Shown piece after piece: positions 1,087-21,291 of a stretch of 24,162 nucleotides of DNA. The DNA comes from a virus (lineage: Duplodnaviria > Heunggongvirae > Uroviricota > Caudoviricetes). Positions within the stretch are counted from its first letter, which is position 1. The number at the start of each line of letters is the position of its first letter. The position numbers and the translations under genes are program-made. Under the pieces are notes generated by a model, which ran no database searches, had not been told where the DNA came from, and saw only the letters and a program-made list of their open reading frames with translations. The DNA lies in IMG/VR virus record IMGVR_UViG_2690316224_000007; one strand, given 5' to 3'.

Positions 1087-1089
1087 GAT

Positions 1090-4364: not shown

Positions 4365-4366
4365 TG

Positions 4367-4567
4367 CTACTCCCCCCACAACTGAATCATTTCTCGTTTC
4401 TTCTTCTCCGGCTCCGGCATCTCCACTTCCTGCCCGGCGTCCAGAAATACCTGCTGACAGAGTCCGGGGTTGGCATCCAGCACCTTTTCGGTGACGCCCT
4501 GCGTCGTGCCGTAGTACCGGAAACAGAGCGAATCCACGGTGTCGCCTTCCAGTGCCTTTACTTTCAT
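4367..4567 (-). CDS. X: Tail protein X
   Basis: 66-aa product from ATG at 4567 (MKVKALEGDTVDSLCFRYYG...), in a TGATG overlap with the L stop. Size and position match P2 X. Confidence 0.8.
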   Translation of the reverse strand: MKVKALEGDTVDSLCFRYYGTTQGVTEKVLDANPGLCQQVFLDAGQEVEMPEPEKKKREMIQLWGE

Positions 4568-5070
4568 CAGCACAACTCCGCAAAGATTCGCGGACGGCAC
4601 AGAATGTCAGAGATGGCCCAGCTCACATCACGCCACAAATCCGATGTCTGTATATCCAGTGCGTCCGCCCGGCGGTCGCCCTTGTCCGTTGTGTCCGCAT
4701 CGCGGTAACGCTCCAGAATCAGGGCGCGTGTGGCGGTGTAAACCGCATTGCGCCAGTGCCAGAGATTGACGCTTTCTCCGTTAATTACGGGTGCCGGAAC
4801 ATCGGCCAGCGTCTGATGGCCAGCCGCCTGCTGTTCCTGCTGCCATGCTTCCAGCTCGCGGGTAACATGTGCCACAGCCCCGGTGGCGGTATGCAGCAGA
4901 CGGGAGGTGGTCACACGGCCCGGCAGTCGTACCGCCAGACGCAGCTCACGCAGCACAATATCCGGCCAGAATGCACCCGCTGAAATACGGGTATCACCAT
5001 CATCGGTATCGGTGATGTCGTCCTCTGCGGGGCCGGGGTTGGTTCTGGCAACCATACTCATGGGGTTCAC
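4567..5070 (-). CDS. L: Head completion/stabilisation protein gpL
   Basis: 167-aa ORF between M and X; length and position as P2 L. Confidence 0.82.
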   Translation of the reverse strand: MNPMSMVARTNPGPAEDDITDTDDGDTRISAGAFWPDIVLRELRLAVRLPGRVTTSRLLHTATGAVAHVTRELEAWQQEQQAAGHQTLADVPAPVINGESVNLWHWRNAVYTATRALILERYRDADTTDKGDRRADALDIQTSDLWRDVSWAISDILCRPRIFAELC

Positions 5071-5163
5071 TCCTGAAAAAAATCGGGCGGTGGGTGCGCG
5101 GTGTAAACGGTCACGGAGTCAAACCGGAACACCGCGCACGCCGCCCGCTGACGGGGTCAGTCG

Positions 5164-5964
5164 TTAACCGCGCTTCGCCTTCTGCGTCGCGGTGGTTTTT
5201 CGTGTTGCAGGCTTCCGCGTTGTCTTTTTACTTTTGCTGCTTTCGTCCTGCGCCTGCTGTGCGCTGGCGTCTTCTGGTTCGGCTGCGGAATCGGCTTTTT
5301 TCAGGGCGCGGGAAAGGGTTGCAATCTCGCGTTTCACACCTGCATTCGGGTTCAGGTGCATTGCTTCGCGCAGCAGCTTCAGTGACAGGGCCATGCTGTC
5401 CGCATCACTCAGGCCACGACGGGCAAAGGCGCACGCCTTGCATAATTTGGCGCGCACTTCGTCCGGCATGTCCTGGTCGGTGACAATCTCCCGGAGGGTA
5501 TCCAGTGGTTCGATAAAGGCGGACAAATCCGCGTCGGCATCCGTCCCGGCCTGCGTCAGTACCGGGTTGCAGATTTCTTCGGTCAGCACTGTGGCAGCAG
5601 TACGGCCAAAGTTATCCGGCATAATGAGGTTATGACGGACCACATACGCACCAATACGCAACGCCAGCGGAAGATCGCCGCAGTCAATCGCCCACACCAT
5701 CAGCGTGGCAATCACTTCATCCTGCTGCCCGCCGTCAGCCTCCAGCGTTCCCTCAATCCAGCCGGAAAAGTCCGGCAACAACTCTTTTTTGATGGCGGCT
5801 TTCGCGCTTCTGGCCTGTACGCCCTTAAGCCGGGCCTGTGCCAGACGCAGACGATACAGCACCTCTTCATGCGCGGTACGCGCGGCGTGGTCCACGCCTT
5901 CATTCGCCCGGCCTGCGCGCTGTGCCATCACGTTCTGCCAGTGTTGCTGTGCAGGAGTAATCAT
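5164..5964 (-). CDS. M: Terminase endonuclease (small) subunit gpM
   Basis: 266-aa ORF after N in P2 order, with a basic Lys/Arg/Thr-rich C-terminal tail. Confidence 0.82.
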   Translation of the reverse strand: MITPAQQHWQNVMAQRAGRANEGVDHAARTAHEEVLYRLRLAQARLKGVQARSAKAAIKKELLPDFSGWIEGTLEADGGQQDEVIATLMVWAIDCGDLPLALRIGAYVVRHNLIMPDNFGRTAATVLTEEICNPVLTQAGTDADADLSAFIEPLDTLREIVTDQDMPDEVRAKLCKACAFARRGLSDADSMALSLKLLREAMHLNPNAGVKREIATLSRALKKADSAAEPEDASAQQAQDESSKSKKTTRKPATRKTTATQKAKRG

Positions 5965-6009
5965 TTTTTCTCTCCGTTACAGGCGGGCATGATGCCCGCT
6001 GTGAGTTGA

Positions 6010-7062
6010 TTAGCTGTCGGCGAACTTCAGGCCAGTGACCATCGCGCACTTGCCATAGTCTTCAACGACATAAGCGTCATTGATGGACTGGTAGGTGGCG
6101 ATGCGGTTGTATTCCGGTTCGTCTTTCATCAGACGACGCATTGAACCTTTCTGCCAGTAAATCGACAGGTTGTTGAACGAGGTGATCAGCATCGTTGCAT
6201 CCGGGAAGAACGGCGCAAGGAACACACCCAGCCCGCCAATGGTGCGCGATGACAGGATGAGCTGTCCGGCGAGTAATTCCGCATTGGGATTCTGGCCGCT
6301 GATGCTGTTCAGCACGGGCAGACGCAGCGAGTTAAACAGGTTGCGCCCCATAATCACCACGAGGTCGTCAGCTTCCTTGTGCCATTCATCCAGCAGGGAT
6401 GAGCGTGCGTCCTGAACCAGTGCATCAGCGTTCGCATACTTACCCGCGTGCGCCACGGTGTTGTCCATGTTGCGGGAGGTCAGCGTCACGTCATTCATTA
6501 CGCGCGCGCTGGCATTGGTTCTGATGTGCTCCAGCCACCCCACGTTAACGTCCTGAAGCAGCTTGTTGGTGCTGAAGTTGGATTTTTCCGCGTGTGACGT
6601 GCCGTTAAAGCCGATCATGATGCGGTCAAGCGCCACCTGTCGGGCAATCTGTGCGCTGATGCGGGTCTGGAAGTCATTGTGCGCCGCCCAGGCATCAAGC
6701 TGCGGATACGAAATAAACGTGTCGTAGTTCACCTGCTCACACTGGTACTGACGGGACTTCAGGTCGACAGCGTTAATCGGGTTGCGGCGATCTGTGCCGT
6801 CATAACTGGTATTTGTGCGCGCAATCGGCCCGGTGGTGTCCATGAGGACTTTTTCGCCTTTCTGGTCGGTCACACCGATCACGTTAATTTTTTTTGTAAG
6901 TTCGGTGCTATCCTTTGAGGCGTTTTCAAAACGCTGCTGCACCGAGGGTTCCACGGTAAATCGCGATACCAGCCCAGAAACCGGGATATTGTTAATCGAC
7001 GCCTGTCGCGTCATGTAGCAGCCCAGCTTGTTACGGGCATTATCTGACATCACCAGATTCAT
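6010..7062 (-). CDS. N: Major capsid protein gpN
   Basis: 350-aa ORF sharing blocks with P2 N as recalled (FTVEPSV, GFNG, VGWL, PFFPDATMLIT, NLSIYWQ, YVVEDY). AAGGAG SD upstream of ATG at 7062. Confidence 0.9.
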   Translation of the reverse strand: MNLVMSDNARNKLGCYMTRQASINNIPVSGLVSRFTVEPSVQQRFENASKDSTELTKKINVIGVTDQKGEKVLMDTTGPIARTNTSYDGTDRRNPINAVDLKSRQYQCEQVNYDTFISYPQLDAWAAHNDFQTRISAQIARQVALDRIMIGFNGTSHAEKSNFSTNKLLQDVNVGWLEHIRTNASARVMNDVTLTSRNMDNTVAHAGKYANADALVQDARSSLLDEWHKEADDLVVIMGRNLFNSLRLPVLNSISGQNPNAELLAGQLILSSRTIGGLGVFLAPFFPDATMLITSFNNLSIYWQKGSMRRLMKDEPEYNRIATYQSINDAYVVEDYGKCAMVTGLKFADS

Positions 7063-7085
7063 AAAAAATTTGCTCCTTTGTCTTA

Positions 7086-7922
7086 TCAGAAGTCAGCCAG
7101 CTGGTCGGAGGCTGCGCCCGTTGCGGTGAACCGGTTCTGCGGATCGCCGTCCTGCGTGCGCAGTTTTTCCTTCAGTGCTGTCAGCTCTGTGGTCAGCGAA
7201 GTGATTTTCTGGCTGTCCTGCTGATGGCGGGTTTCCAGTGCATTAAAACGGTCGATAATATCGGCCTGTGACGTTGCGACACCTTCCACCGCTTCCTGAA
7301 TACGGGAGAAACTGGCGTCATCCGCTTTGCGGCCACGGCCAATAATCCCCATAACGCGGTTAAACCACTGGGTGCCTTCTTCCTGACGTTGTTCGGTGAG
7401 TTCGATAAGTTCTGACTCCATAGCGGCGGTGAACATCGCCACGTCTCCCTGCTGACAGTTGAATGTCATCAGTTGCATACGTTGTTGTGCCGCAAAGGCC
7501 AGACGTTCCGTGCCCAGGCTGGCGGGGGTGTCGGTCATTGCCAGCCCGCGCAGGTAAGGGCCTCCCGTGATGGTTGACTGTGGTTCCAGCTCAATACTGG
7601 AGTAAATTTTTTTACCATCGTTAAGCAGGGACATCATGCGAGCGGTCGGCTCAATTTCGGCATACAGTGCCGTGCGGCCTGCCAGCGGGCCATCGGTTAT
7701 GTCTTCGGTGCTCAACCCCACAACATCGCCCATAGCGGAAAACTCGCTACCGGGGAGTGGTGACAGGATGTGCTCAATATTCACACGTGCACCATAAACG
7801 GACGGGTTATAACTGGTGGCGGCAGCTTTCAGCATGTCGCCGTTGATTTCGCGCCCGTCTGCCGTCACACCGGAGACAGCCACGCGAAACTTTTTGCGGG
7901 ATGTCTTTTTTTCATTAGTCAT
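7086..7922 (-). CDS. O: Capsid scaffolding protein gpO
   Basis: Start chosen at ATG 7922 (MTNEKKTSRKKFRVAVSG), which has an AGAGGGG SD 8 nt upstream; the longer track start at 7955 has no SD. Product has the P2 O-like DPASLGTE block and a coiled-coil C-terminus. Confidence 0.82.
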   Translation of the reverse strand: MTNEKKTSRKKFRVAVSGVTADGREINGDMLKAAATSYNPSVYGARVNIEHILSPLPGSEFSAMGDVVGLSTEDITDGPLAGRTALYAEIEPTARMMSLLNDGKKIYSSIELEPQSTITGGPYLRGLAMTDTPASLGTERLAFAAQQRMQLMTFNCQQGDVAMFTAAMESELIELTEQRQEEGTQWFNRVMGIIGRGRKADDASFSRIQEAVEGVATSQADIIDRFNALETRHQQDSQKITSLTTELTALKEKLRTQDGDPQNRFTATGAASDQLADF

Positions 7923-7955
7923 AGTTTTTGCCCCTCTGACTGGTTCTTCAGTCAT

Positions 7956-8076: not shown

Positions 8077-9828
8077 ATGATTCAGGACGCTTTTGTGCGC
8101 CAGCGTGCGCGGCAACTTTACTGGCAGGGTTATCCGCCCGCAGAAATATCACGTCTGATGGGAATAAACCCGAACACGATTTATGCGTGGAAAAAACGCG
8201 ACCAGTGGGATGAAACGCCACCCGTGCAGCGTGTCACGCAGTCCATCGATGCGCGCCTCATCCAGCTTACTGAAAAACAGAATAAAACAGGTGGTGACTT
8301 CAAGGAAATAGACCTGCTGACCCGGCAGCTTAAAAAGCTGCATGATGGCCAGCCGGATGTGATGGCCGCAGGAAAGAAAGGCCGGGCGAAAAAACTCAAA
8401 AATCATTTCACGCCGGAACAGATTGCCGCACTGCGGGAAAAAATCATCAGCAGGCTGGAGTGGCATCAGCGGGGCTGGTTTGACTCCCTGACCCTTTGCA
8501 GGGAAGCCGGGATACGTAACAGGATGATCCTGAAATCCCGACAGATTGGGGCGACCTGGTATTTTGCACAGGAAGCACTGCTGATGGCGCTGCGTGACGA
8601 TGTGGCACAACCTTACCAGCGTAACCAGATTTTTTTGTCTGCGTCGCGTCGTCAGGCGTTCCAGTTTAAAAGCATTATTCAGAAGGCTGCGGCTGAAGTT
8701 GATGTGGAGCTGAAAGGGGGCGATAAAATCATCCTCTCCAACGGCGCAGAGCTGCATTTTCTTGGTACTTCTGCTGCGACGGCACAGTCCTACACGGGCA
8801 ATTTTTATTTTGATGAATTTTTCTGGGTCAGTCGCTTTGCTGAACTGCGCAAGGTGGCTGGCGCTATGGCAACCCTCAGCGGACTGCGGCGCACCTACTT
8901 CTCCACGCCATCCACCGAAACGCACGAGGCATACGCCTACTGGAATGGCGACCGCTGGAACGAGAAAAAGGCCACGCATAAACGCCAGCGTTTTTCTGTG
9001 GACTGGAAAACGCTGCATAACGGGCTTATCTGCCCTGACCGGACGTGGCGGCAAATTGTCACGCTGGAAGATGTGGTTAATCACGGCTGGAAACACACCG
9101 ATATTGACGAAATTCGTGATGAAAACACCGAAGACGAGTTCCGCAATCTCTATATGTGTGAGTTTGTCCGCGAAGGGGAATCGGCATTTAACCTGAATAT
9201 CCTGATTGGCTGCGGTGTTGACGGATACGACGACTGGAAAGACTGGAAACCTTTTGCTCCCCGCCCGATGGGGAATCGTCCGGTATGGATTGGGTATGAC
9301 GCAAACGGCAGCAGTGGAAACGGCGACAGCGGCGCTGTGTCCGTGGTGGTTCCTCCGGCTGTTCCTGGAGGCCGTTTTCGAACGGTGGAGACGCGACGCG
9401 TTCAGGGGCTGGAGTTTGAAGAACAGGCCAGAGTCATTGAAGAGTTCACGTGTCGCTACAACGTGGAACACATCGGCATTGATGTGACGGGCGGGAACGG
9501 GGAGGCTGTTTATCAGATAGTGAAACGGTTTTTCCCTGCTGCTATTCCGTACACCTTCACGCTGTCATCAAAACGGTCGCTGGTACTGAAAATGCTGCAA
9601 ATAATGCGTGCCGGGCGGTGGGAATATGATCGCGCCGAACGCGAGCTGGTCGCAGCCTTTAACGCCGTGCGTAAGGTGAAAACACCGGGCGGCTTTATCA
9701 CTTACGAAACGGACCGTGCGAGGGGGATCAGCCACGGCGACCTTGCGTGGGCAACCATGCTTGCTGTCATTAACGAACCGATTGGCGGCGAAGGGGAAAA
9801 CGAGCGTTTTACGGTTATGGAGTTCTGA
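8077..9828 (+). CDS. P: Terminase ATPase (large) subunit gpP
   Basis: 583-aa ORF, P2 P-sized, with a strong SD; stop overlaps the Q start (TGATG at 9826-9830). Confidence 0.9.
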   Translation: MIQDAFVRQRARQLYWQGYPPAEISRLMGINPNTIYAWKKRDQWDETPPVQRVTQSIDARLIQLTEKQNKTGGDFKEIDLLTRQLKKLHDGQPDVMAAGKKGRAKKLKNHFTPEQIAALREKIISRLEWHQRGWFDSLTLCREAGIRNRMILKSRQIGATWYFAQEALLMALRDDVAQPYQRNQIFLSASRRQAFQFKSIIQKAAAEVDVELKGGDKIILSNGAELHFLGTSAATAQSYTGNFYFDEFFWVSRFAELRKVAGAMATLSGLRRTYFSTPSTETHEAYAYWNGDRWNEKKATHKRQRFSVDWKTLHNGLICPDRTWRQIVTLEDVVNHGWKHTDIDEIRDENTEDEFRNLYMCEFVREGESAFNLNILIGCGVDGYDDWKDWKPFAPRPMGNRPVWIGYDANGSSGNGDSGAVSVVVPPAVPGGRFRTVETRRVQGLEFEEQARVIEEFTCRYNVEHIGIDVTGGNGEAVYQIVKRFFPAAIPYTFTLSSKRSLVLKMLQIMRAGRWEYDRAERELVAAFNAVRKVKTPGGFITYETDRARGISHGDLAWATMLAVINEPIGGEGENERFTVMEF

Positions 9829-10874
9829 TGAGCAGAAAAAATAAAAAAGTGCGCATGAGTTCACGCATTGATCTCGCTGATGCGCTCAGGAAAGAATCAT
9901 CGCTCAGTGCATTCACATTTGATGGTCCTTATCGCCTGACCGGGCATGACCTGCTGGACAATATGTACTGTGCTGATAACGGGCGGTGGTATGAAACCCC
10001 GGTGGACTGGTACAGTCTGGCAAGAGCCGCCCGGCAAACGTCCTGGCATCAGTCTGCGCTTTACTTTAAGCGTAATGTATTGCTCGGGTGCTACATCCCG
10101 CACCCGCTGCTTTCCCGGCAGGATTTCTCGGCGCTGGCGCTGGACTGGTTTGTGTTCGGTAACGCATTCCTTGAGCTTCGGAGCAATATGCTCGGCGAAC
10201 CGCTTAAATTACGGCACGCCCTGGCGAAATACATGCGACGCGGAAGCGATCTTGAATCATGGTGGTATGTGCAGGATGGCAAGGACGCGTTCCAGTTTCG
10301 CCCTGGCAAAGTGTGCCACCTGATGAATCCGGATATTAACCAGGAAATCTACGGCATGCCGGAATATCTTGGCGCATTACTCTCGGCCAGCCTTTCTCAT
10401 TCGGCGGACATGTTCAGAAAACTGTACTACGACAACGGATCCCACGCCGGGTGCATCATCTACATCGGTGCAGCGCAGGTAAACCGCGAAAGCATGGACT
10501 CCCTGAAAGAAACGTTACAGGGTGCGCGTGGTGGTGGTGCATTTAAAAACGTGCTCATTCATGCGCCCAACGGGGGCAAAGAAGGGGTGCAAATTTTGCC
10601 GTTCCAGCAGATCACCGCAAAGGATGAGTTCATGAATGTTAAGGCGGCATCCCGTGATGATGTGCTGGCTGCGCACCGCGTTCCGCCGCAACTGATGGGG
10701 GCGATGCCGGGCGAAAAAAGTGCGTTTGGTGATGTGGAGAAGGCCGCGCGGGTTTACGCAATTAACGAGCTGATGCCCGTCATGGAGGCCATGAAGCACA
10801 TCAATGACTGGCTTGGCGAAGAGGTGATCCGCTTTAACCCTTACGCACTGTTAGACACCCAGCCCACATCCTGA
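9828..10874 (+). CDS. Q: Portal protein gpQ
   Basis: 348-aa ORF translationally coupled to P; size and position as P2 Q; ends facing the expected cos region. Confidence 0.9.
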   Translation: MSRKNKKVRMSSRIDLADALRKESSLSAFTFDGPYRLTGHDLLDNMYCADNGRWYETPVDWYSLARAARQTSWHQSALYFKRNVLLGCYIPHPLLSRQDFSALALDWFVFGNAFLELRSNMLGEPLKLRHALAKYMRRGSDLESWWYVQDGKDAFQFRPGKVCHLMNPDINQEIYGMPEYLGALLSASLSHSADMFRKLYYDNGSHAGCIIYIGAAQVNRESMDSLKETLQGARGGGAFKNVLIHAPNGGKEGVQILPFQQITAKDEFMNVKAASRDDVLAAHRVPPQLMGAMPGEKSAFGDVEKAARVYAINELMPVMEAMKHINDWLGEEVIRFNPYALLDTQPTS

Positions 10875-10897
10875 CGCGCTTCGCTTGTCTGCTGCTT

Positions 10898-10920
10898 CGC
10901 CGGGGCATAAAAAATTTATG
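10898..10920 (+). other. Perfect 10-bp-stem hairpin (GGGGCATAAA-AAA-TTTATGCCCC), 24 bp after the Q stop
   Basis: Read directly from the sequence. No T-tract follows on either strand, so it is not a canonical intrinsic terminator; may be an RNA processing or protein-binding element. Confidence 0.4.
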
Positions 10921-11328
10921 CCCCGACTCTCCAGCTCCTGTATCAGTCAGATAATTTCACGACGCTTTCCTGCTGATTGCCATCATCGACAGTCAGACTC
11001 TTACGCAATCCCACCGCGTTGACTGCATGTTCTCGCCGTCTCAGTGCGATTTTGACGGCCTTACCTTTCACCCCATCAAATCAAAAGCCCTCACGTCTTT
11101 TTCACGCTCAGCGTGAGAAATACAGCCATTCTGTTCTATCTCTGCGACATCGTTCAGGGAATGCTATTTACCCCCTGAAACGCGGGCTGTTCCCCCGTCA
11201 CCTGCGCGCAGAAAAAACGCGTTTTTTTGTGCACGTACGGATCCTTGACGGATCCAGCCACCACGCGGGCCGGTAGTACAAAAAGTCGTTCAAAAAAATT
11301 GTGCAAACTTGTGCACTATCGTGCAAAC

Positions 11329-11351
11329 AAAAAAAGCGCCTTATCGGCGCT
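11329..11351 (-). terminator. Rho-independent terminator (minus strand)
   Basis: Minus-strand reading AGCGCC-GATAA-GGCGCT followed by TTTTTTT, a few nt after the stop of the 11361..11630 ORF. Confidence 0.55.
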
Positions 11352-11360
11352 TCAAAAGTA

Positions 11361-11630
11361 TCAATTGTTGCTGTGTATTAATCGCCAACCACGAACATAT
11401 GCTTCATAGGCATCTCTGTGCCTTACAGTTCCAGCCTGGCTAAACGGAATGTTAGCTAAAACTAAATCATTCTGAGCCATAGCGCGTCCTTCAAGCGCAT
11501 CTTTTATGCCTAGCTCAAAAGCACAGGCAGCGCATTTGTGCCGACCTTCTTGTCCTTGATATTCAGGGAGAGACAGAAATGTTGGATTATAACGATGAGG
11601 GTTCTTGCAAATACCTGTTTTAGCCCGCAC
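11361..11630 (-). CDS. Hypothetical protein (89 aa, GTG start; contains C-x-x-C)
   Basis: ORF in the AT-richer islet with a GAGG SD 8 nt before a GTG start and a terminator immediately downstream. No recognisable homology; could instead begin at an internal ATG (39 aa). Confidence 0.35.
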   Translation of the reverse strand: MRAKTGICKNPHRYNPTFLSLPEYQGQEGRHKCAACAFELGIKDALEGRAMAQNDLVLANIPFSQAGTVRHRDAYEAYVRGWRLIHSNN

Positions 11631-11765
11631 TTTATTTACCTCATAGGAAAAATATGCGTGCCTTTACAGAGGTGCGTGTAAGCAATAAAATATACGACGC
11701 ACATTTTGATTTACTTCGGAAGGCACGCATATCAGGTTAAGTGAGTCCGACCGAGTTTTACGCCC

Positions 11766-11799
11766 CAATAGTTGCTGCTATTGGGGCGTTTTGCATGGA
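11766..11799 (+). terminator. Intrinsic terminator-like hairpin (plus strand)
   Basis: 12-bp perfect stem ACGCCCCAATAG / CTATTGGGGCGT with a 6-nt loop, followed by TTTTG. No annotated plus-strand gene ends here, so it may end a small transcript (see findings). Confidence 0.45.
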
Positions 11800-11994
11800 C
11801 AATGCCGCGCAATTATCTTGTCGCTCACAATGCGAACGATCTTACAAAAAGGCACATTACTGTCAAGATAATTGATCGTTTTAATCGATAGATAATAGAC
11901 AATCTATTTGTTTAACAGATCGATTATTGAAGTAAGTGTGCCAGATGGAATGATACTGTCTCTATAAACGTGAGCATTTTTCGCGCAGATGCTT

Positions 11995-12306
11995 TTACTC
12001 AGGAAATAACGCCCGGATATTCCCAGCCATCTGGCTGGTTATCTTAGCCACTGGTGCAGACTGTGCTTCAAACTTTTTTGAGCTGATTTGTGTCACAGGT
12101 AATATCTCATCATCAGCCCATGCGGCCAGTCGGTAAGCCTCTGCCGGATTCGTCTTCAGAAGTGCCAGCCCGGCCAGAAAAGCCACGCGTTGGCCGCTTT
12201 TGCGGGCTTCTGGTGTAAGGCTGTCCAGCCAGGCGCATGCTTCTCCTTCGTTCTTGACGGCAGCTGGCTTCAGATAGAAACTTATTCTTCTGGTTGGTGT
12301 CGTCAT
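11995..12306 (-). CDS. parR: ParR/StbB-like centromere-binding protein (ribbon-helix-helix type)
   Basis: 103-aa ORF 4 nt downstream of parM, with an AAGGAG SD in the parM 3' end. Blocks RRISFYLKP, ACAWLDSL..E, RVAFLAGLAL and NIRALFPE align with plasmid R1 ParR as recalled. Confidence 0.65.
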   Translation of the reverse strand: MTTPTRRISFYLKPAAVKNEGEACAWLDSLTPEARKSGQRVAFLAGLALLKTNPAEAYRLAAWADDEILPVTQISSKKFEAQSAPVAKITSQMAGNIRALFPE

Positions 12307-12310
12307 TGGT

Positions 12311-13270
12311 TTACTCCTTGTTCATTGCGTACAGCCCATTAACCAGAGCAAATTGTGGCACCCCGTCCGCGATGAAAGTCGCATTAACTCCGCAGGCTTC
12401 GCGGATAGCGGGTGCCACAATCTCCGCCCCGCCACCGACAACCATCACCCGCCCGTAACCCGAAAAAACCGCCAGAGCGCGGATCACGCGTTGTTTCAGT
12501 GTTTCTTCCTTTTCACGAATAATCGCCATCAGGCTGGCGTAATGCGCGTCATTGTGGATGTGCTGGCGCAACCAGGCTTCATCATGGCGATGTTCGATAA
12601 TGGTATTGGCGATGTGGTGACTGGTGCGCATACCGTTAGTGGCCATCACCGACAGTACGGCATCGGCCATCAGAGAAACGCCTACGTGTGGATCGCAAAA
12701 CACCTGGCTGATACCTGCCAGTTGCCCCTGAACCTTTGCCACATCCAGCGTGGTTCCGCCCAAATCCACAATCAGCAGGGATTCAAACGGACTCATGTCA
12801 GCCAGTGCCTTAAAGCCAGCCGGAATGGATTCAGGCATAACCCGCACGTTACGGATAGTGAATGCTTCGCCGTTCTGGTACTCCACCGGGCGCATAACGT
12901 TCGCTTTTTTGCGGTTGATGTTGGCCATGTCCGGCTGTGCGTTTGTGTCGAAATACTCGCTCAGTGGCAGGGTGACAACCACATCCACCTCCCGTGGCGT
13001 GATGCCTGATTTGACCAGCGCGTGATGAATGGCAATGACATTCACATCGCTGTACTGGTATTGCGTGTCGGTCGTCTGGACAAAGCGATCGCTGACCGGA
13101 TCAAAACCATAGCGCACGCCATCAAGCATGTAGTTCGCGGGCTGCGTGCCACCGAACGGCGCAGACCATTCCGACTTGAAGCTGTTCGGGCTGATGGCGT
13201 TGCGGCGTTCGCCGTTCTCAGTCCATGCCAGCTTGATGTTGGTGGAGCCGTCGTCGATACAAATTCTCAT
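12311..13270 (-). CDS. parM: ParM/StbA actin-like segregation ATPase
   Basis: 319-aa ORF with a near-complete set of ParM blocks matching R1 ParM as recalled: IDDGSTNIKL, SPNSFK, YSDVNV, HHAL, TLPL, RKKAN, FTIRNVRVMPESIPAG, SLLIVDLGGTTLD, GVSL, LKQRV, FSGYGRVMVVGGGAE, LVNGLY. AGGAAAA SD before the ATG. Confidence 0.9.
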   Translation of the reverse strand: MRICIDDGSTNIKLAWTENGERRNAISPNSFKSEWSAPFGGTQPANYMLDGVRYGFDPVSDRFVQTTDTQYQYSDVNVIAIHHALVKSGITPREVDVVVTLPLSEYFDTNAQPDMANINRKKANVMRPVEYQNGEAFTIRNVRVMPESIPAGFKALADMSPFESLLIVDLGGTTLDVAKVQGQLAGISQVFCDPHVGVSLMADAVLSVMATNGMRTSHHIANTIIEHRHDEAWLRQHIHNDAHYASLMAIIREKEETLKQRVIRALAVFSGYGRVMVVGGGAEIVAPAIREACGVNATFIADGVPQFALVNGLYAMNKE

Positions 13271-13301
13271 CTCGATTTTCCTTATGTTGATTAATTAATC
13301 G

Positions 13302-13415
13302 TTTACGGGATTTTTAAATCCCGTTTTCGCCTGTTTTGTGCGCGCTTCATATATCGCGGCGCGTTTTTTGCTCATTTACGGGATTTGTGAATCCCGTTTC
13401 TGTCTGTTTTTTGTT
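13302..13415. repeat. Two ~39-bp direct repeats, each with a palindrome (ACGGGATTTTTAAATCCCGT / ACGGGATTTGTGAATCCCGT), spanning the A stop codon and the parM upstream region
   Basis: Repeat 1 at 13302..13340, repeat 2 at 13377..13415, 75 bp apart; each has CCCGTTTy and CTGTTTT sub-motifs. A TTAATTAAT -10-like element lies between repeat 1 and the parM SD. Confidence 0.5.
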
Positions 13416-16169
13416 TCCACTGGTCAGGCTACCCCGCAGCAGGTCTGCTTTGCGGCGGGCGCGTTCAGTGGTTTCACTGATTCTCTGTGCGTGCTCTGCG
13501 TCACGAATGGCGCGCAGCATGTCAGAAAGCACGGTAACGGGGGTTTTCATGGTGTTCTGGTCCTGCTGAAGTGTGGATGCCAGGCGTGCGGCGGCTTCGG
13601 GGTCTGATGTCCCCAGCTGTTCCAGATAGCTGGCGACCGGGTTATGGCGGATCTCCGTACTGCTTACGCCGTGGTTACGGCTCAGGCGCTGCCAGAGCTG
13701 CGTGATCCGGCTGTCCGGTCGGGTATCCGGTTTGCGTACAATTTCAAATCCCTGCGGTGCAATGTTGCTGCCGTCAACGTACAGACTGCCGCCCCGTAAC
13801 AGGTGCTGCATCTGCTGTTCACCGATATGCAGGCCGAGAGATTCAGCAGACTCCCGCCATTCTTTAGCGAGTAGTTCGTGGTTATCAGGCAAAGGCCGCT
13901 GCTGTTTGCGGCTCTGTGTCCAGCTCTGCATTTCATCACGGCTGTTTTTTGCCTGTTTGTCACGAAGCGAACGCATCAGCGCCCGGCGTTCGTGCCGTTT
14001 CAGTGAGCGCATCCATTCGTTCACTTCAACGCCGTCAGGGAGCTGCGGCCACGGTGCTGGCCGTTCTTCCGGCTGTTCTGTCCCGTTGTTGTCCGTTTCC
14101 TGTACACGGGGACAGTTATTGCCACGAGTCCAAGGGGCGGCAGGGCCGCCCTGAAGGTCAAAACCATTTTCGCGGGCGCTGTCTTCCGCTTCCGGTTTGC
14201 GTCTTACCAGCTTCCAGTTATCCGGATGCGTGCATACGCGGGAAGACTCCCCAATGAGCGGCGACCAGATCCCGTAAATCTGTACACTCTGCTCGCCGTA
14301 ATCGTTCAGCTCATCTGCGAGGTCGTAGGCTGTGCGAATCAGGTAGTCCTTGCGCGGAACAAGTACGCCCCCCTGTTTTTCAATGTAGGTGGCAAAACAT
14401 CCGGCATCAGCGGCAGCGAGTACCGCATCCATTGCGTCATCCTTCAGCCGTTGCGGGCCTTCCGGGTTGCGTGCCATCTGGCTGGCAAGGCGGCGGAGTT
14501 CACGCCACACCTGACGGGAGGGGATGCCAAAGAACTGGAACTGGCGGACCCGGTGAAGGCGCGCCCAGCCGATGGCACGCTCCACGCTCTCGGCCATTGA
14601 TTTACCTGTTTCGTGGTCAACGCGTGGCTTGCCCGTTTTCGGGTCGATGCCATCCACGGCACGGCTGTCCAGGTTTTTCCCGATGTAGGTGGCGATGTAG
14701 CTGGTCGGTGTGCCTTTTGAGCCGTCGACGTACTCCGCTTTAAAACGCGGAGTTATGTCATCGCCCAGCTCGTGACGATCTTCCTGAATGGCAATATCGC
14801 GGGTGTGGGACACAATGGTGTCGATTTCTTCCGGATGAGCAAAGACCATCATATGCCAGTGCACGGTGCCGTCATGGTGAGGCTCCACCGTGCGGATGCC
14901 ATACCAGCGCAGGCCGTCGCGGTTCAGTTTCTTGCGGACCGCCGCAAAAAACGAGTTAACCAGGTAATCGCTGGAGTCGCGCATAGTGGCCCCGTTCCAT
15001 TTGGGATTCGGATGACCGTTCTCCGTTGTTGCGTGGTATTTTGACGGGCAGGTGACAGTCAGAAACACCGCTCTGTCGCCACGGGCTTCGGCCAGAAGTT
15101 CCAGCCCCTTCATGGTGGCCATCATTTCTGCCTTACGGTGAACCGGGTTACTTACTCCCGCGTAATACACCGTCTCGAGATCAATCGTGAACCCGTCTTC
15201 ATTTTCCAGCATGAAACTTTTCAGGAAATCGCGTGTTTTCTCGCGCTGTGCGCGAAACTCGCTTAACGCATCCTGGCTCAGATAGGGCGATGTTTTTCTG
15301 GAAACCAGACAGGCGGCGCGGAGTTGTTCTTCTCTCCACTCGCAACGTAACAGCCACAGTTTGCGTTTCCACCATTCCGCACAGGTCAGGCGAAGGACTG
15401 CGCCCGGCAGCAGCTCCGTGTCCGGTTCGTTCCTCCGGTCTTTATCTGTTGTCAGTGCGTCATAATGTGGAGGCATGATGTGCAGGTGTAACGCCATGCG
15501 GGCCAGCATCTGATACGTCTTCAGCGTTACATCCATGGTCAGTTCGCCATCGGTCGCGCCAAAGCCATCGCAGAGTTTTTCGAAGGTGCTGCTGAACATC
15601 GCCGCCGTCATGGTGGCCAGCGTCTGTATCTGGTGTTTGTTGAGCTGCGGCAGGTAAAGCAAATCGTCCAGGCGTTCGCGTCCGGCAAGGGAGCGATAAC
15701 CCGGTGTCAGCCAGCGTCCGTCAGTGCGATCCAGACGTTCGAATATTTTGCGCAGGGTTCCGCGTGCATAGCGTTCCGCCTGCCAGCTCTTTTTGCCTTT
15801 CCGGCGATCGACTTCCTGTTTTTTGCGCAGGAAGGAGAGGTGGCGAATAAGCGGATCGCGCAGATAGGACGGCAGCAGGCGCAGCGAGGCCATGGCTTCA
15901 TCCACCGTGCCGCGTGCCTGTCTTCTGGCGTCTCCTGCCAGCGTGATGGTTTTGTCCTGTTTTTCCTGTGCGTCCAGGCTTTTATTAATCAGGTTGCCCA
16001 GTGGCGTGGCAGAGAACGCCGCATCAGCCTTTTCCTGTCGGTGCTCGTTCTCTGCCTGGTAGGCATCCAGCCAGGAGGAAAGCGCAGATTCAGGTGCGGG
16101 GATCCCCGTTCCTTCACGCCCCACTGCGTGGCGCGGTTGTTGCCAGTCCCTGATGTACTCTGTCGTCAT
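13347..16169 (-). CDS. A: Replication initiation endonuclease gpA (rolling-circle HUH initiator), 940 aa
   Basis: HUH motif seen as VEPHHDGTVHWHMMVF and the two-tyrosine catalytic motif as TSYIATYIGKN (Y-x3-Y). Position downstream of the small early genes matches P2 A; about 180 aa longer than P2 A at the C-terminus. Confidence 0.88.
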   Translation of the reverse strand: MTTEYIRDWQQPRHAVGREGTGIPAPESALSSWLDAYQAENEHRQEKADAAFSATPLGNLINKSLDAQEKQDKTITLAGDARRQARGTVDEAMASLRLLPSYLRDPLIRHLSFLRKKQEVDRRKGKKSWQAERYARGTLRKIFERLDRTDGRWLTPGYRSLAGRERLDDLLYLPQLNKHQIQTLATMTAAMFSSTFEKLCDGFGATDGELTMDVTLKTYQMLARMALHLHIMPPHYDALTTDKDRRNEPDTELLPGAVLRLTCAEWWKRKLWLLRCEWREEQLRAACLVSRKTSPYLSQDALSEFRAQREKTRDFLKSFMLENEDGFTIDLETVYYAGVSNPVHRKAEMMATMKGLELLAEARGDRAVFLTVTCPSKYHATTENGHPNPKWNGATMRDSSDYLVNSFFAAVRKKLNRDGLRWYGIRTVEPHHDGTVHWHMMVFAHPEEIDTIVSHTRDIAIQEDRHELGDDITPRFKAEYVDGSKGTPTSYIATYIGKNLDSRAVDGIDPKTGKPRVDHETGKSMAESVERAIGWARLHRVRQFQFFGIPSRQVWRELRRLASQMARNPEGPQRLKDDAMDAVLAAADAGCFATYIEKQGGVLVPRKDYLIRTAYDLADELNDYGEQSVQIYGIWSPLIGESSRVCTHPDNWKLVRRKPEAEDSARENGFDLQGGPAAPWTRGNNCPRVQETDNNGTEQPEERPAPWPQLPDGVEVNEWMRSLKRHERRALMRSLRDKQAKNSRDEMQSWTQSRKQQRPLPDNHELLAKEWRESAESLGLHIGEQQMQHLLRGGSLYVDGSNIAPQGFEIVRKPDTRPDSRITQLWQRLSRNHGVSSTEIRHNPVASYLEQLGTSDPEAAARLASTLQQDQNTMKTPVTVLSDMLRAIRDAEHAQRISETTERARRKADLLRGSLTSGNKKQTETGFTNPVNEQKTRRDI

Positions 16170-16175
16170 ACTGAT

Positions 16176-16541
16176 TTACTGCGTCATACCGTTCAGGGTG
16201 TCACGGCAAACGGCAGCCAGCCGCTGAATTTCCAGCACGGTGTCTTCTGTGTCGGCATAGCGATGTGTGATGCGGATGCTGTCGGCAATCACATCGACGA
16301 TTGCAGAGGATGGGCGCTGGTAAATGCCAATAACGGACGGAGTGCCACCTTCAATGCGGTAAAGCCTGTAATTTCCCTCGTGGCTGTCAATCATGTAGCG
16401 ACCATCAATAACAATCTTTCCGTCAGCGAGCTGCGGTACAGGCAGGGATTTCAGGTACATGTCATAACGTTCACGCACGCGAACGGCAAGATCACGCTCT
16501 GTGTTGAGCAGGTATTCAAGAAAGTCGTTGGCGAGAATCAT
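16176..16541 (-). CDS. Hypothetical early protein (121 aa) immediately upstream of A
   Basis: AAGAGGA SD 8 nt upstream of the ATG; stop lies 6 nt before the A start. Present in all three repeat copies with a few amino-acid differences. No recognisable family. Confidence 0.6.
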   Translation of the reverse strand: MILANDFLEYLLNTERDLAVRVRERYDMYLKSLPVPQLADGKIVIDGRYMIDSHEGNYRLYRIEGGTPSVIGIYQRPSSAIVDVIADSIRITHRYADTEDTVLEIQRLAAVCRDTLNGMTQ

Positions 16542-16613
16542 TGCGGCAATCCTCTTGTTACAGATGTGCGAAGGCCTCCCGCCGCAAGGTGCAGGAAAGG
16601 CCCGGAACAGGAA

Positions 16614-16844
16614 TTAATGGAGTTTGTTTTGCTGCTGGATGAGCTGCTGAAGCTCGCGCAGATCATCCGCCAGATAACTGAAAACAGCGGATGAGTAGAG
16701 GTTTGAAAGTTCGCAGCTACGCTCATGCAGCATATTGATGTGCATGATTTTAGCGACGCGGAATGCGCGGGAAAGTCTGCGGTTGATTTCAGTCTGGATG
16801 TGACGACGCTCCGCGATAGCGCGGTGCTGTTTGCGGTTTGCCAT
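16614..16844 (-). CDS. Hypothetical small basic protein (76 aa)
   Basis: AGAGG SD 7 nt upstream of the ATG; basic helical N-terminus (NRKQHRAIAERRHIQTEINRRL); identical in all three copies. Confidence 0.5.
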   Translation of the reverse strand: MANRKQHRAIAERRHIQTEINRRLSRAFRVAKIMHINMLHERSCELSNLYSSAVFSYLADDLRELQQLIQQQNKLH

Positions 16845-17211
16845 GGTGTGGCCTCTTTGGTTGTAAGTTTTGAAAACTCACCATCCAGAGCTGCGAAACT
16901 GTGGGTGGCGAGACGTACGGGGTTCGCAGTACCGGCAACCAAAGAACCCGGCCCGACCGAAGTCGGCCCCGTACGCCCCGCCATAATTCTGACGCGAAAA
17001 AAACGTGGCAATACAGTACGCACAAAAAAACCGCTGGCGCGGTTGTGCGCTTTGGTTGTCAGCAGGCTGCGAAACCCGGCACCCGTTTTATGAGGTGCAG
17101 CGAAAATGTAACCTGACTGATTGCGGCATGGCAAGCGGTTTTTTTGTGAGAACGGCATACTAAAAAATCCTGATACTGCTCCGGCCAGCGGTTTGCACTG
17201 GCCGGGTGTCA
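16845..17211 (-). ncRNA. Structured non-coding spacer between the SPFH gene and the 76-aa gene (candidate terminator cluster or small RNA)
   Basis: Minus-strand reading shows, in order, an 8-bp-stem hairpin CCGGCCAG..CTGGCCGG just after the SPFH stop, a hairpin AACCGC-GCCA-GCGGTT followed by TTTTTTT, a second T7 run, and a CCGAC-UUCG-GUCGG tetraloop hairpin. The only long ORF across it is low-complexity and out of frame with the 76-aa gene. Identical copies at 20135..20501 and 21523..21889. Confidence 0.4.
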
Positions 17212-17636
17212 TTACTTCACGGGAACGAACGGAACAGCGGTGTTACTGGTCATGTATTGCGGCAGCGTGCCGTTCCATTTGTTGATCGCTTCCAGCTCCA
17301 TAACGCCGGGATTCTGGCGCAGAGCTTCGCCGCGTAAACGAATGGCGTCGGCTTCAGCCTGGGCTTTTGTGCGAATGGCATCGGCCTGTCCGGCAGCTTC
17401 TGCGCGCAACATGTTGGCTTCTGCTTCGCGCTGCTTGACTTCCTGTTCGCGTTGCAGGGTTTTCTGGTTTGCCGTGACTTTGGCATTAATGCTGTCGATA
17501 ACGGTTGGCGGGTATTCCGGCTTACCCACATAAGAGAGGCTCATTACCTGAATGCCGATAGGTGTCGTTTCTGCCTGAATGTCTTTAAGTGCTGAATCCA
17601 GCAGTTCAGACTTGCCACCGTCGATAAATTTATCGN
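17212..17636 (-). pseudogene. 3' fragment of the SPFH lipoprotein gene (copy 1), truncated at an N
   Basis: Colinear with 21890..22314 of the full-length gene; coding continuity ends exactly at the ambiguous base at 17637. Confidence 0.65.
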
Positions 17637-17637
17637 G
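17637..17637. other. Single N: probable contig join
   Basis: SPFH-gene sequence lies directly before the N and mid-gene A sequence directly after it, which cannot be one contiguous locus. Confidence 0.8.
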
Positions 17638-19459
17638 TGCGAATCAGGTAGTCTTTGCGTGGAACAAGTACGCCGCCCTGTTTCTCTATGTAGGTGGCAA
17701 AACATCCGGCATCAGCGGCAGCGAGTACCGCATCCATTGCGTCATCCTTCAGCCGTTGCGGGCCTTCCGGGTTGCGTGCCATCTGGCTGGCAAGGCGGCG
17801 GAGTTCACGCCACACCTGACGGGAGGGGATACCAAAGAACTGGAACTGGCGGACACGGTGAAGGCGCGCCCAGCCGATGGCGCGTTCCACGCTCTCGGCC
17901 ATTGATTTTCCGGTTTCGTGGTCAACGCGTGGCTTGCCCGTTTTCGGGTCGATGCCATCTACGGCGCGGCTGTCCAGGTTCTTTCCGATGTAGGTGGCGA
18001 TGTAGCTGGTTGGCGTGCCTTTTGAGCCGTCGACGTACTCCGCCTTAAAGCGTGGGGTAATATCATCACCCAGCTCGTGACGATCTTCCTGAATGGCAAT
18101 ATCGCGGGTGTGGGACACAATGGTGTCGATTTCTTCCGGATGAGCAAAGACCATCATATGCCAGTGCACGGTGCCGTCATGGTGAGGCTCCACCGTGCGG
18201 ATGCCATACCAGCGCAGGCCGTCGCGGTTCAGTTTCTTGCGGACCGCCGCAAAAAACGTGTTAACCAGGTAATCGCTGGAGTCGCGCATGGTGGCCCCGT
18301 TCCATTTGGGATTCGGATGACCGTTCTCTGTTGTGGCGTGGTATTTTGACGGGCAGGTGATGGTCAGAAACACCGCTTTGTCGCCACGGGCTTCGGCCAG
18401 AAGTTCCAGCCCCTTCATGGTGGCCATCATTTCTGCCTTACGGTGAACCGGGTTACTTACTCCCGCGTAATACACTGTCTCGAGATCAATCGTGAACCCG
18501 TCTTCGTTTTCCAGAATGAAACTTTTCAGGAAATCGCGTGTTTTCTCGCGCTGTGCGCGAAACTCGCTTAACGCGTCCTGGCTCAGATAGGGCGATGTTT
18601 TTCTGGAAACCAGACAGGCGGCGCGGAGTTGTTCTTCCCGCCACTCGCAACGTAACAGCCACAGTTTGCGTTTCCACCATTCCGCACAGGTCAGGCGAAG
18701 GATTGCGCCCGGTAACAGTTCCGTATCCGGATCGCTCTTGTTCAGAGCTTCGTAATGTGGCGGCATGGCGTGCAGGTGTAACGCCATGCGGGCCAGCATC
18801 TGATACGCCTTCAGCGTTACATCCATGGTCAGTTCGCCATCGGTCGCGCCAAAGCCATCGCAGAGTTTTTCGAAGGTGCTGCTGAACATCGCCGCCGTCA
18901 TGGTGGCCAGCGTCTGTATCTGGTACTGGTTGAGCTGCGGCAGGTAAAGCAAATCATCCAGGCGTTCGCGTCCGGCAAGGGAGCGATAACCCGGTGTCAG
19001 CCAGCGGTGGTCGGTGCGGTCCAGACGTTCGAATATTTTGCGCAGTGTTCCGCGCGCGTAGCGTTCAGCCTGCCAGCTCTTTTTGCCTTTCCGGCGATCG
19101 GCTTCCTGTTTTTTGCGCAGGAAGGAGAGGTGGCGAATAAGCGGATCGCGCAGATAGGACGGCAGCAGGCGCAGCGAGGCCATGGCTTCATCCACCGCGC
19201 CGCGTGCCTGTTTTCTGGCGTCTCCTGCCAGTGTGATGGTTTTGTCCTGTTTTTCCTGTGCGTCCAGGCTTTTATTAATCAGGTTGCCCAGCGGCGTGGC
19301 GGAGAACGCCGCATCAGCCATTTCCTGGCGGCGCTCGTTCTCTGCCCGGTAGGCATCCAGCCAGGAGGAAAGCGCGGATTCAGGAACGGGGATCCCCGTT
19401 CCTTCACGCCCCACTGCGTGGCGCGGTTGTTGCCAGTCCCTGATGTACTCTGCCGTCAT
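17638..19459 (-). pseudogene. A: gpA copy 2: N-terminal ~607 codons, truncated at the N
   Basis: Colinear with 14340..16169 but with many substitutions and an indel (HYDALTTDKDRRNEPDTELL versus HYEALNKSDPDTELL), i.e. a divergent allele rather than an exact duplicate. Confidence 0.7.
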
Positions 19460-19465
19460 AGTGAT

Positions 19466-19831
19466 TTACTTCGTCATGCCATTCAGGGTGTCGCGGCAGA
19501 CGGCAGCCAGCCGCTGAATTTCCAGCACGGTGTCTTCTGTGTCGGCATGGCGATGTGTGATGCGGATGCTGTCGGCAATCACATCGACGATTGCAGAGGA
19601 TGGGCGCTGGTAAATGCCAATAACGGACGGGGTGCCATCTTCAATGCGGTAAAGCCTGTAATTTCCCTCGTGGCTGTCAATCATGTAGCGACCATCAATA
19701 ACAATCTTTCCGTCAGCGAGCTGCGGTACAGGCAGGGATTTCAGGTACATGTCATAACGTTCACGCACGCGAACGGCAAGATCACGCTCTGTGTTGAGCA
19801 GGTATTCAAGAAAGTCGTTGGCGAGAATCAT
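19466..19831 (-). CDS. 121-aa early protein, copy 2
   Basis: Differs from copy 1 at three residues (G to D, Y to H, terminal Q to K). Confidence 0.55.
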   Translation of the reverse strand: MILANDFLEYLLNTERDLAVRVRERYDMYLKSLPVPQLADGKIVIDGRYMIDSHEGNYRLYRIEDGTPSVIGIYQRPSSAIVDVIADSIRITHRHADTEDTVLEIQRLAAVCRDTLNGMTK

Positions 19832-19903
19832 TGCGGCAATCCTCTTGTTACAGATGTGCGAAGGCCTCCCGCCGCAAGGTGCAGGAAAGGCCCGGAACAG
19901 GAA

Positions 19904-20134
19904 TTAATGGAGTTTGTTTTGCTGCTGGATGAGCTGCTGAAGCTCGCGCAGATCATCCGCCAGATAACTGAAAACAGCGGATGAGTAGAGGTTTGAAAGT
20001 TCGCAGCTACGCTCATGCAGCATATTGATGTGCATGATTTTAGCGACGCGGAATGCGCGGGAAAGTCTGCGGTTGATTTCAGTCTGGATGTGACGACGCT
20101 CCGCGATAGCGCGGTGCTGTTTGCGGTTTGCCAT
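19904..20134 (-). CDS. 76-aa basic protein, copy 2
   Basis: Identical to copy 1. Confidence 0.45.
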   Translation of the reverse strand: MANRKQHRAIAERRHIQTEINRRLSRAFRVAKIMHINMLHERSCELSNLYSSAVFSYLADDLRELQQLIQQQNKLH

Positions 20135-20501
20135 GGTGTGGCCTCTTTGGTTGTAAGTTTTGAAAACTCACCATCCAGAGCTGCGAAACTGTGGGTGGCG
20201 AGACGTACGGGGTTCGCAGTACCGGCAACCAAAGAACCCGGCCCGACCGAAGTCGGCCCCGTACGCCCCGCCATAATTCTGACGCGAAAAAAACGTGGCA
20301 ATACAGTACGCACAAAAAAACCGCTGGCGCGGTTGTGCGCTTTGGTTGTCAGCAGGCTGCGAAACCCGGCACCCGTTTTATGAGGTGCAGCGAAAATGTA
20401 ACCTGACTGATTGCGGCATGGCAAGCGGTTTTTTTGTGAGAACGGCATACTAAAAAATCCTGATACTGCTCCGGCCAGCGGTTTGCACTGGCCGGGTGTC
20501 A

Positions 20502-20768
20502 TTACTTCACGGGAACGAACGGAACAGCGGTGTTACTGGTCATGTATTGCGGCAGCGTGCCGTTCCATTTGTTGATCGCTTCCAGCTCCATAACGCCGGG
20601 ATTCTGGCGCAGAGCTTCGCCGCGTAAACGAATGGCGTCGGCTTCAGCCTGGGCTTTTGTGCGAATGGCATCGGCCTGTCCGGCAGCTTCTGCGCGCAAC
20701 ATGTTGGCTTCTGCTTCGCGCTGCTTGACTTCCTGTTCGCGTTGCAGGGTTTTCTGGTTTGCCGTGAC
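20502..20768 (-). pseudogene. 3' fragment of the SPFH lipoprotein gene (copy 2), truncated at the N run
   Basis: Colinear with 21890..22156; ends at NNNNNN. Confidence 0.65.
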
Positions 20769-20774
20769 NNNNNN
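20769..20774. other. NNNNNN: probable scaffold gap or contig join
   Basis: Flanked by SPFH-internal sequence on the left and the A 5' end on the right. Confidence 0.8.
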
Positions 20775-20847
20775 CGGGGATCCCCGTTCCTTCACGCCCC
20801 ACTGCGTGGCGCGGTTGTTGCCAGTCCCTGATGTACTCTGCCGTCAT
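20775..20847 (-). pseudogene. A: gpA copy 3: first 24 codons only
   Basis: MTAEYIRDWQQPRHAVGREGTGIP then the N run. Confidence 0.65.
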
Positions 20848-20853
20848 AGTGAT

Positions 20854-21219: not shown

Positions 21220-21291
21220 TGCGGCAATCCTCTTGTTACAGATGTGCGAAGGCCTCCCGCCGCAAGGTGCAGGAAAGGCCCGGAACAGGAA

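Follow-up and report, generated by a model that had tools for sequence, protein, structure and literature searches.

A plasmid-type ParM/ParR partition module beside the replication gene of P88-like prophages

The IMG/VR record IMGVR_UViG_2690316224_000007 is a 24,162-nucleotide (nt) stretch of tailed-phage DNA (Caudoviricetes), hereafter the window, that represents a P88-like prophage (Xuanwuvirus, P2 family). Its gene map, judged from the open reading frames (ORFs) and from annotated near-identical records, is reversed relative to the usual P2 orientation. Directly downstream of gene A, which encodes the rolling-circle replication endonuclease gpA, lies a compact gene pair, parM and parR, with the makeup of a plasmid-type (type II, ParMRC) partition system: an actin-like ATPase, a predicted centromere-binding adaptor and, ahead of both, two palindrome-bearing repeats. 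The features of this locus are listed below; the two ribosome-binding signals and the -10-like element were read from the sequence.

13347-16169, minus strand: gene A, encoding gpA, the rolling-circle replication endonuclease, 940 amino acids (aa) (Pfam Phage_GPA, 1e-130); stop codon at 13347-13349
13372-13413, minus strand: distal parC-like repeat, 42 nt, palindrome at 13378-13397, within the last gpA codons
13299-13340, minus strand: proximal parC-like repeat, 42 nt, palindrome at 13305-13324, between the gpA stop codon and the parM ribosome-binding site
13290-13299, minus strand: weak AT-rich -10-like element, TTAATTAAT, beside the proximal palindrome
13278-13283, minus strand: AAGGAA ribosome-binding site ahead of the parM ATG
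12311-13270, minus strand: parM, actin-like segregation ATPase, 319 aa (Pfam, alignment with R1 ParM, PHROG)
12314-12319, minus strand: AAGGAG Shine-Dalgarno sequence for parR, within the last parM codons
11995-12306, minus strand: parR, predicted centromere-binding adaptor, 103 aa (Pfam Plasmid_stab_B, 7.8e-24; PHROG 2515)

The N bases of the window, confined to 17636 and 20769-20774, all lie outside this cassette, and the segment 11900-13420 has 100% identical copies in Escherichia coli chromosomes from pig and human. A preliminary description of the locus had read the 319-aa ORF as ParM/StbA and the 103-aa ORF as ParR, coupled through a Shine-Dalgarno sequence in the 3' end of parM and preceded by palindrome-bearing direct repeats and an AT-rich -10-like element, in the parC-parM-parR layout between gene A and the cos/portal side. 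Profile searches with the ParM and ParR models, alignment with R1 ParM and the upstream analysis described below bear out each of these points.

The 319-aa protein matches both ParM domains far over the cut-offs, namely the Pfam StbA_N model over residues 1-157 (1.7e-81, 272 bits) and the Pfam ParM C-terminal domain over residues 159-316 (1.7e-68, 230 bits). A phmmer comparison aligns it along its full length (residues 2-316) with R1 ParM (1mwk) at E=1.2e-92, and the phosphate-1 loop IDDGSTNIK and the PES, DLGGTTLD and GGGAE motifs are identical to those of R1. E147 and D169 are the equivalents of R1 E148 and D170, and in an alignment of the phage clade defined below D6, D7, G8, S9, T10, K13, E147, D169, G171, G172, T173, T174 and G279-A282 are all invariant; the nucleotide-binding residues, whose loss would have spoken against the preliminary description, are thus retained. 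The PHROG "partition protein" families match both ParM and ParR, while a search of NCBIfam returned far sub-threshold matches for ParM and none for ParR. In all 80 IMG/VR loci surveyed parM is intact and codes for 319 aa, and ratios of nonsynonymous to synonymous substitution (dN/dS) of 0.02-0.25 in 15 pairs show that it is under strong purifying selection.

ParR, by its sequence, is a member of the ParR/StbB family. Its ATG lies 4 nt past the parM stop codon, a gap found in all E. coli-type loci. Eighteen ParR alleles share an invariant strand, RRISFYLKP, at the N-terminus and an invariant segment, NI(R/Q)ALFPE, at the C-terminus, whereas their linker (residues 65-95) is hypervariable. This pattern fits the usual ParR, in which a flexible linker joins the DNA-binding end to a tail that binds ParM. 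The Escherichia ParR alleles range from 99% down to about 45-55% identity, whereas ParM is constant at 97-99%; in one locus ParR is only 55% identical and parC is nearly identical. Proteins of 103 aa are encoded by 59 of the 80 loci and proteins of 104 aa by 18. BLAST matches break within parR, at query position 353 (window 12252), which suggests that breakpoints of recombination at the adjoining hotspot discussed below fall within this gene and that parR forms the recombination edge of the hotspot. Since a PDB sequence search with ParR gave no match, and the AlphaFold monomer model built from the 18 alleles (pLDDT 56) is too poor for a fold search, the ParR fold is not confirmed.

The two 42-nt direct repeats are 83% identical and 73 bp apart, and each carries a 20-nt palindrome, ACGGGATTT..AAATCCCGT. 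Against a chance expectation of 0.03, this palindrome pattern is matched four times here and at no other place in the window. When up to 1 mismatch is allowed, a scan of a complete P88-like genome of 34.4 kb picks out the two palindromes alone. Among 45 variants of the upstream region the CGGGA/TCCCG arms are largely kept, with a single C-to-T change in the proximal arm of some, and the centre varies. Related prophages of Plesiomonas and Hafnia have another sequence on the same plan, with two GGG-N10-CCC cores 72-73 bp apart. The distal core falls within the next ORF upstream of parM, which is gpA in Plesiomonas and an ORF of 167 aa in Hafnia; the proximal core stands just ahead of a conserved TTAATCAA and the ribosome-binding site. 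In Serratia and Enterobacter there are instead two inverted arms of ~20 nt, 26-28 nt apart, and a plasmid-type relative (L014) has classic 11-bp iterons. The centromere/operator of the phage clade thus appears to be a minimal, two-site one, unlike R1 parC: the R1-type array of ten iterons is absent upstream of parM, and two conserved palindromic sites stand there. A small centromere is not disqualifying, because the functional srpC centromere of the integrative element R391 has only four 13-bp repeats (PMC4489591).

A consensus scan of the interval between gpA and parM finds no sigma-70 promoter and no sense-strand terminator. This fits co-expression with the replication gene together with autoregulation by ParR, and the expression of parMR is likely to be linked to replication.

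The comparison with the best-studied relative, the ParMRC system of R1/NR1 (the parA locus, or StbAB), brings out both an orthodox core and several departures. The order of sites, parM and parR is the same, with the sites placed around the likely promoter ahead of parM; the alignment of the two ParMs spans the whole protein, the ATPase residues are kept, and the phage ParR falls in the StbB Pfam family and has a conserved C-terminal tail. In contrast, the phage ParM is only ~46-52% identical to plasmid ParMs and forms a clade of its own; the two 20-nt palindromes 73 bp apart differ from the ten 11-bp iterons of R1; one of the phage sites lies within the coding end of gpA; and the carrier is an integrating phage, not a low-copy plasmid.

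To place the module in its genomic context we surveyed the 80 IMG/VR loci, 76 of which have flanking sequence sufficient for the distance to gpA to be measured. Fewer than 200 nt separate the end of gpA from parM in 75 of these 76 E. coli-type loci, and between the parR stop codon and the portal gene lie anywhere from 990 to 4,173 bp. As the gpA-parM distance is constant and the parR-portal distance varies, the variable cargo sits after parR, in the window at 10875-11994. Complete E. coli genomes, searched at a coverage of at least 80%, contain the P88-type gpA 3' end in 1,355 cases and parM in 1,279. Beyond E. coli, parM-parR pairs occupy the gpA-to-portal slot of P2-like prophages in Plesiomonas (ParM 62% identical), Hafnia (61%), Serratia (58%) and Enterobacter ludwigii (53%). 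There parM directly follows gpA in Plesiomonas and Serratia, a 167-aa ORF intervenes in Hafnia and two ORFs in Enterobacter; extra cargo, in the form of HicAB, a KAP NTPase or small ORFs, lies 3' of parR in these relatives. In Escherichia albertii NBRC 107761 gpA is 98% and ParM 99% identical to the window, versus 30% for the portal and 36% for the terminase. This near-identity of gpA and ParM, in the company of head genes that are not near-identical, indicates that parMR travels with the replication module. The E. albertii locus is itself a clear module swap, with its boundary near parR and cos. The preliminary description had likened the cassette to variable cargo of the tin/old type, a view that does not hold: parM is intact in every surveyed locus and stays within 200 nt of gpA in all but one of those measured, and the variation lies 3' of parR. 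Thus parMR behaves as a part of the replication module and not as hotspot cargo.

The module is common. We found parM in 1,303 of 5,426 complete E. coli genomes (~24%), nearly always at a nucleotide identity of at least 95% and annotated as "plasmid segregation protein ParM", and the cassette DNA occurs in 14 phage records, including P88, 520873, 503458, P884B11, PhiR44_2, Chuche and Citrobacter phiSM. A scan of contigs with single-protein patterns returned three loci only, all at 97% or more; the distant relatives were reached through protein searches and contig look-ups. Neighbor-joining analysis of 106 ParMs groups the proteins from phage contexts, 16 tips in all, into a single clade. A comparison of ParM with 72,556 plasmids gave six records at 95-99%, all of them pieces of P88-type prophages, and the rest lie below 60%, the best at ~52%; relatives at 48-50% identity include one integrative and conjugative element and one integrated plasmid.

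The module has also been discussed in print. Pfeifer 2021 drew attention to the partition genes and raised the possibility of an episomal state. Rousset 2022 (PMC9122126) reported a "putative plasmid partitioning system" in about a quarter of P2-like phages, again with the suggestion of an episomal state, defined the gpA-to-portal region as a defence hotspot, and filed the partition module under "other functions". The module in those studies is the same as ours (95-100% DNA identity) with no difference in kind, and the papers only remarked on the genes. Our literature searches for experiments on the P88-type module or on ParM in P2-like phages found none. The module is accordingly common but, as far as these searches reach, not characterised experimentally, and its novelty is low since it is common, annotated and already discussed. 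What the present analysis adds is the separate ParM clade of the phages, the linkage to gpA with cargo after parR, the purifying selection and the chromosomal record.

The chromosomal record is close to uniform: of the 1,443 places where parM occurs in complete E. coli genomes, 1,441 are on chromosomes. The prophage of strain EC361 is inserted beside pheL/pheA and encodes a tyrosine integrase, Cox and a repressor. No plasmid-type Rep/initiator is annotated in the whole prophage, and the early region of the window has gpA (Phage_GPA) only. An extrachromosomal circular form clearly occurs, in the shape of pZ1323PEC0009-2 (PLSDB), a finished 34,461-bp circle that comprises a whole P88-like genome joined at attP with the integrase kept. 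A search of the complete E. coli genomes, among which the assembly of this circle is apparently not included, found a phage 99.9% identical to it in integrated form in a second strain from that project. Beside attP, at 110-1431 of this circle, are a Com/methyltransferase pair and a gene for a Hok/Gef family toxin. A Hok/Gef post-segregational killer next to a partition system is a plasmid-like combination.

Among the other records that might be taken for plasmids, three were inspected and are of a different nature. The IncC plasmid pC-Ec2-KPC (NZ_MK439959.1), a conjugative KPC plasmid, carries a rearranged P88-like segment with gpA, parM and parR between IS26 copies, and we set it aside as a prophage fragment captured by IS26; such capture is a route by which the phage partition module could reach plasmids. 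A Shigella boydii record is a linear contig riddled with insertion sequences, and "Phage 520873" is an excerpted prophage that includes flanking host DNA and has IS100 inserted in it; both were likewise rejected as evidence for a plasmid. Four further matches lie on very large replicons of 272 kb to 1.4 Mb.

Starting from what the genomes establish, namely what the parts are, that they are intact, conserved and linked to gpA, and that the prophages are integrated, we infer the binding of ParR to its sites, the filament-driven movement, the stage of action and the fitness benefit. The module would be a functional type II (ParMRC) machine, fixed in the replication module of the P88-like (Xuanwuvirus) phages and of related Enterobacterales prophages. 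ParR dimers would bind the two palindromes that flank the gpA stop codon just 5' of parM, and at those sites ParR would probably also repress a weak parM promoter. The conserved C-terminal tail of ParR is predicted to capture ATP-ParM filaments, and the growing filaments would push the ParR-bound phage circles apart. Replication of the P2 type yields monomeric circles. The likely substrate would be the monomeric circles produced by gpA rolling-circle replication, either after infection and before integration or after excision. The pay-off might be that a copy is kept in both daughter cells while the genome is outside the chromosome, the expected gain being a higher yield of lysogens from each infection and fewer losses when excision is abortive; a permanent plasmid lifestyle would not be part of this scheme. 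In our judgement the prospects that parMRC segregates such transient extrachromosomal circles are about even.

We favour this reading because the closest working analogue is SrpMRC of the SXT/R391 elements, which stabilises the excised, rolling-circle-replicating R391 and reduces loss of the element at cell division (Carraro 2015, PMC4489591). In both cases a type II partition system with a small centromere, a putative one in the phage, sits on an element that is normally integrated and replicates by the rolling-circle mode. The differences are that SrpM/SrpR are distant from R1 ParMR, whereas the phage pair is orthodox; that the carrier there is a conjugative element and not a phage; and that the function of SrpMRC has been demonstrated by experiment and that of the phage module is deduced.

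Several considerations weigh against the segregation of transient circles. The function of the whole module is deduced, as no experiment on it was found. There are two binding sites only, compared with the R1 parC array, and the filament-capturing complex is putative. A single non-replicating circle gains nothing by partition, and a benefit requires replication by gpA in surviving cells, which is not established for P2-like phages. The lack of a consensus promoter says little about the timing of expression. Finally, the genomic record does not separate circle segregation from a role in lytic replication.

That second role is the alternative that survives best. ParM and ParR might act as a cytoskeleton of the lytic cycle, positioning or spreading the replicating circles and so raising the efficiency of replication or packaging. 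The model for this is AlpC/AlpA/alpS of the Corynebacterium glutamicum prophage CGP3 (PMC4446434), which also combines a prophage-encoded actin-like protein, a DNA-binding adaptor and sites, acts on phage DNA, and is needed for efficient viral DNA replication (PMC4446434, PMC5539076). The demonstrated role of that system is in replication efficiency after induction, but it has a distant actin-like protein with no homology past the actin fold and belongs to a Gram-positive host. The placement of parMR directly after gpA, on the same strand with no intervening terminator or consensus promoter, its movement in the company of the replication genes and not of the head genes, and its deep conservation in the phage lineage would all suit a lytic function. 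However, P2 and many other P2-like phages replicate without parMR, and the pair is an orthodox plasmid-type ParM/ParR and not a diverged phage-specific one. We regard this alternative as unlikely. Equally doubtful is the broader proposal of a second lifestyle for the P88-like phages, in which circles made by gpA are inherited as a facultative plasmid via ParM filaments, or in which the filaments organise lytic replication.

A true phage-plasmid, in which P88-like phages could forgo integration and be inherited over many generations as low-copy plasmids, with gpA for replication and ParMRC for partition, is improbable. This was one of the readings offered in the preliminary description; it is not new, having been proposed in both Pfeifer 2021 and Rousset 2022 (PMC9122126), and the genomic record does not bear it out as the usual state, although the circle it calls for does exist. 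The complete circular genome pZ1323PEC0009-2, recorded as a plasmid, is the most direct support, but this single record could equally be excised or induced DNA, and the integrase and attP are present in it as elsewhere. Precedents come from plasmid prophages that, like the P88-like phages, have plasmid partition genes in a phage genome: D6 (StbA type, with a ParM 47.8% identical to ours), P1/P7 (ParAB) and KS14 (RepB and ParA). KS14, a characterised P2-like plasmid prophage, shows that a phage with P2-like structural genes can be a plasmid prophage, using RepB and ParA and not gpA/ParMR (PMC3091744). All of these are kept as plasmids with plasmid-type replication, whereas the P88-like phages are found in the integrated state and have no more than an integrase and gpA. 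The "plasmid" matches other than the circle come down to very large replicons (228 kb to 1.4 Mb, counting the IncC one with its captured fragment) and a linear contig. Of the marks of a phage-plasmid, namely an extrachromosomal lysogen, plasmid-type replication and the usual lack of an integration module, the P88-like phages, one circular record aside, show none in the genomic record. As nearly all copies are chromosomal and no plasmid-type initiator is annotated, a stable phage-plasmid state has little support. In the P2 model, moreover, gpA lies within the repressor-controlled early operon, which also counts against it.

Still less probable is that the pair is cargo of benefit to the host or serves in conflict, either through exclusion or defence in the lysogen, which the preliminary description had raised, or through incompatibility, as a weapon directed at plasmids or phages with a related centromere. 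Its location in the gpA-to-portal defence hotspot (Rousset 2022, PMC9122126), the HicAB and KAP NTPase genes that adjoin parMR in relatives, and the diversity of ParR against a constant ParM could be read in this way. However, neither ParM nor ParR nor the 89-aa neighbour described below matches a PADLOC family at E<=0.01, the module is a complete canonical ParMRC that stays constant while the adjoining cargo varies, and the survey that defined the hotspot lists it among "other functions" (PMC9122126). Further, the ParR variation falls in the linker and not in the DNA-binding end, and parC can be nearly identical where ParR is 55% identical. That the cassette is a relic, a captured plasmid cassette now useless to a phage that by integrating seemingly needs no partition, is very improbable in view of the strong purifying selection on parM, the intact ORFs in 80 of 80 loci and the retention of the same slot across genera down to 53% identity.

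As a discovery the module adds little, the genes being annotated and the idea in print; it is of modest interest as an experiment, which would be cheap and well defined. About 24% of complete E. coli genomes hold it in a prophage, intact and under purifying selection. Should it indeed stabilise the unintegrated or excised circle, the lesson of SXT/R391, that integrative elements too need plasmid-like replication and partition, would extend to tailed phages, and the result would bear on the establishment and loss of lysogeny. Should a second lifestyle or lytic filaments prove correct instead, this would be the first demonstrated actin-based segregation system for an integrating tailed E. coli phage and would account for the chromosomal "plasmid" partition system of about a quarter of E. 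coli strains.

The remaining features of the window, as given by the ORF map, are the following.

1-7955, minus strand: tail, lysis and head genes
8077-9828, plus strand: terminase
9828-10874, plus strand: portal, the gene ending at 10874
10875-11994, no strand assigned: variable cos-proximal stretch from portal to parR, ~1.1 kb, with an 89-aa ORF and an RNA-like unit

The P2 cos sequence, GGCGAGGCGGGGAAAGCAC, has no match here even when 3 mismatches are tolerated, and cos was not located. Upstream of gpA the window has apparent repeats, with positions 14332-17478 matching 17637-20768 at 96.8% identity and 16097-17639 matching 20775-22316 at 99.2%, such that gpA recurs in truncated form (17630-19459, 609 aa) and a gene pair coding for proteins of 121 aa and 224 aa (Ash family) is present three times. 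We rejected this triplication (14332-22316) as real biology and regard it as a scaffolding join of related contigs, because the repeat junctions are exactly the only N runs of the window and complete E. coli genomes are single-copy: a 10.8-kb query over the repeated blocks corresponds to ~6.1-6.3 kb in them. The early region also codes for a 276-aa protein with a full SPFH/Band-7 domain (Pfam, 2.9e-30) and an Ash-family protein, at 21890-22720 and 16538-17212 respectively, both on the minus strand. Neither gene was found in the prophage copy of EC361, so the early region appears to be mosaic too.

In the variable stretch between parR and the portal the sole cargo-like gene here is an 89-aa, Cys-containing ORF (11361-11630, minus strand), which matches PHROG 3941 (6.3e-49) and has no Pfam or PADLOC match; a terminator-like hairpin lies by it at 11333-11353. 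An Rfam search of 10800-13600 gave only two sub-threshold matches, both on one terminator hairpin. On the plus strand, at 11663-11798, a promoter-like TTTACA-17-TAAAAT (10/12 matches) is followed ~100 nt on by a strong 13-bp hairpin and a T run (11760-11795), and a 102-nt stretch within this unit has a predicted fold of -35.6 kcal/mol (z = -3.75). An RNA made from it would be antisense to the leader of minus-strand transcripts entering the 89-aa ORF, and the unit may be a small regulatory RNA.

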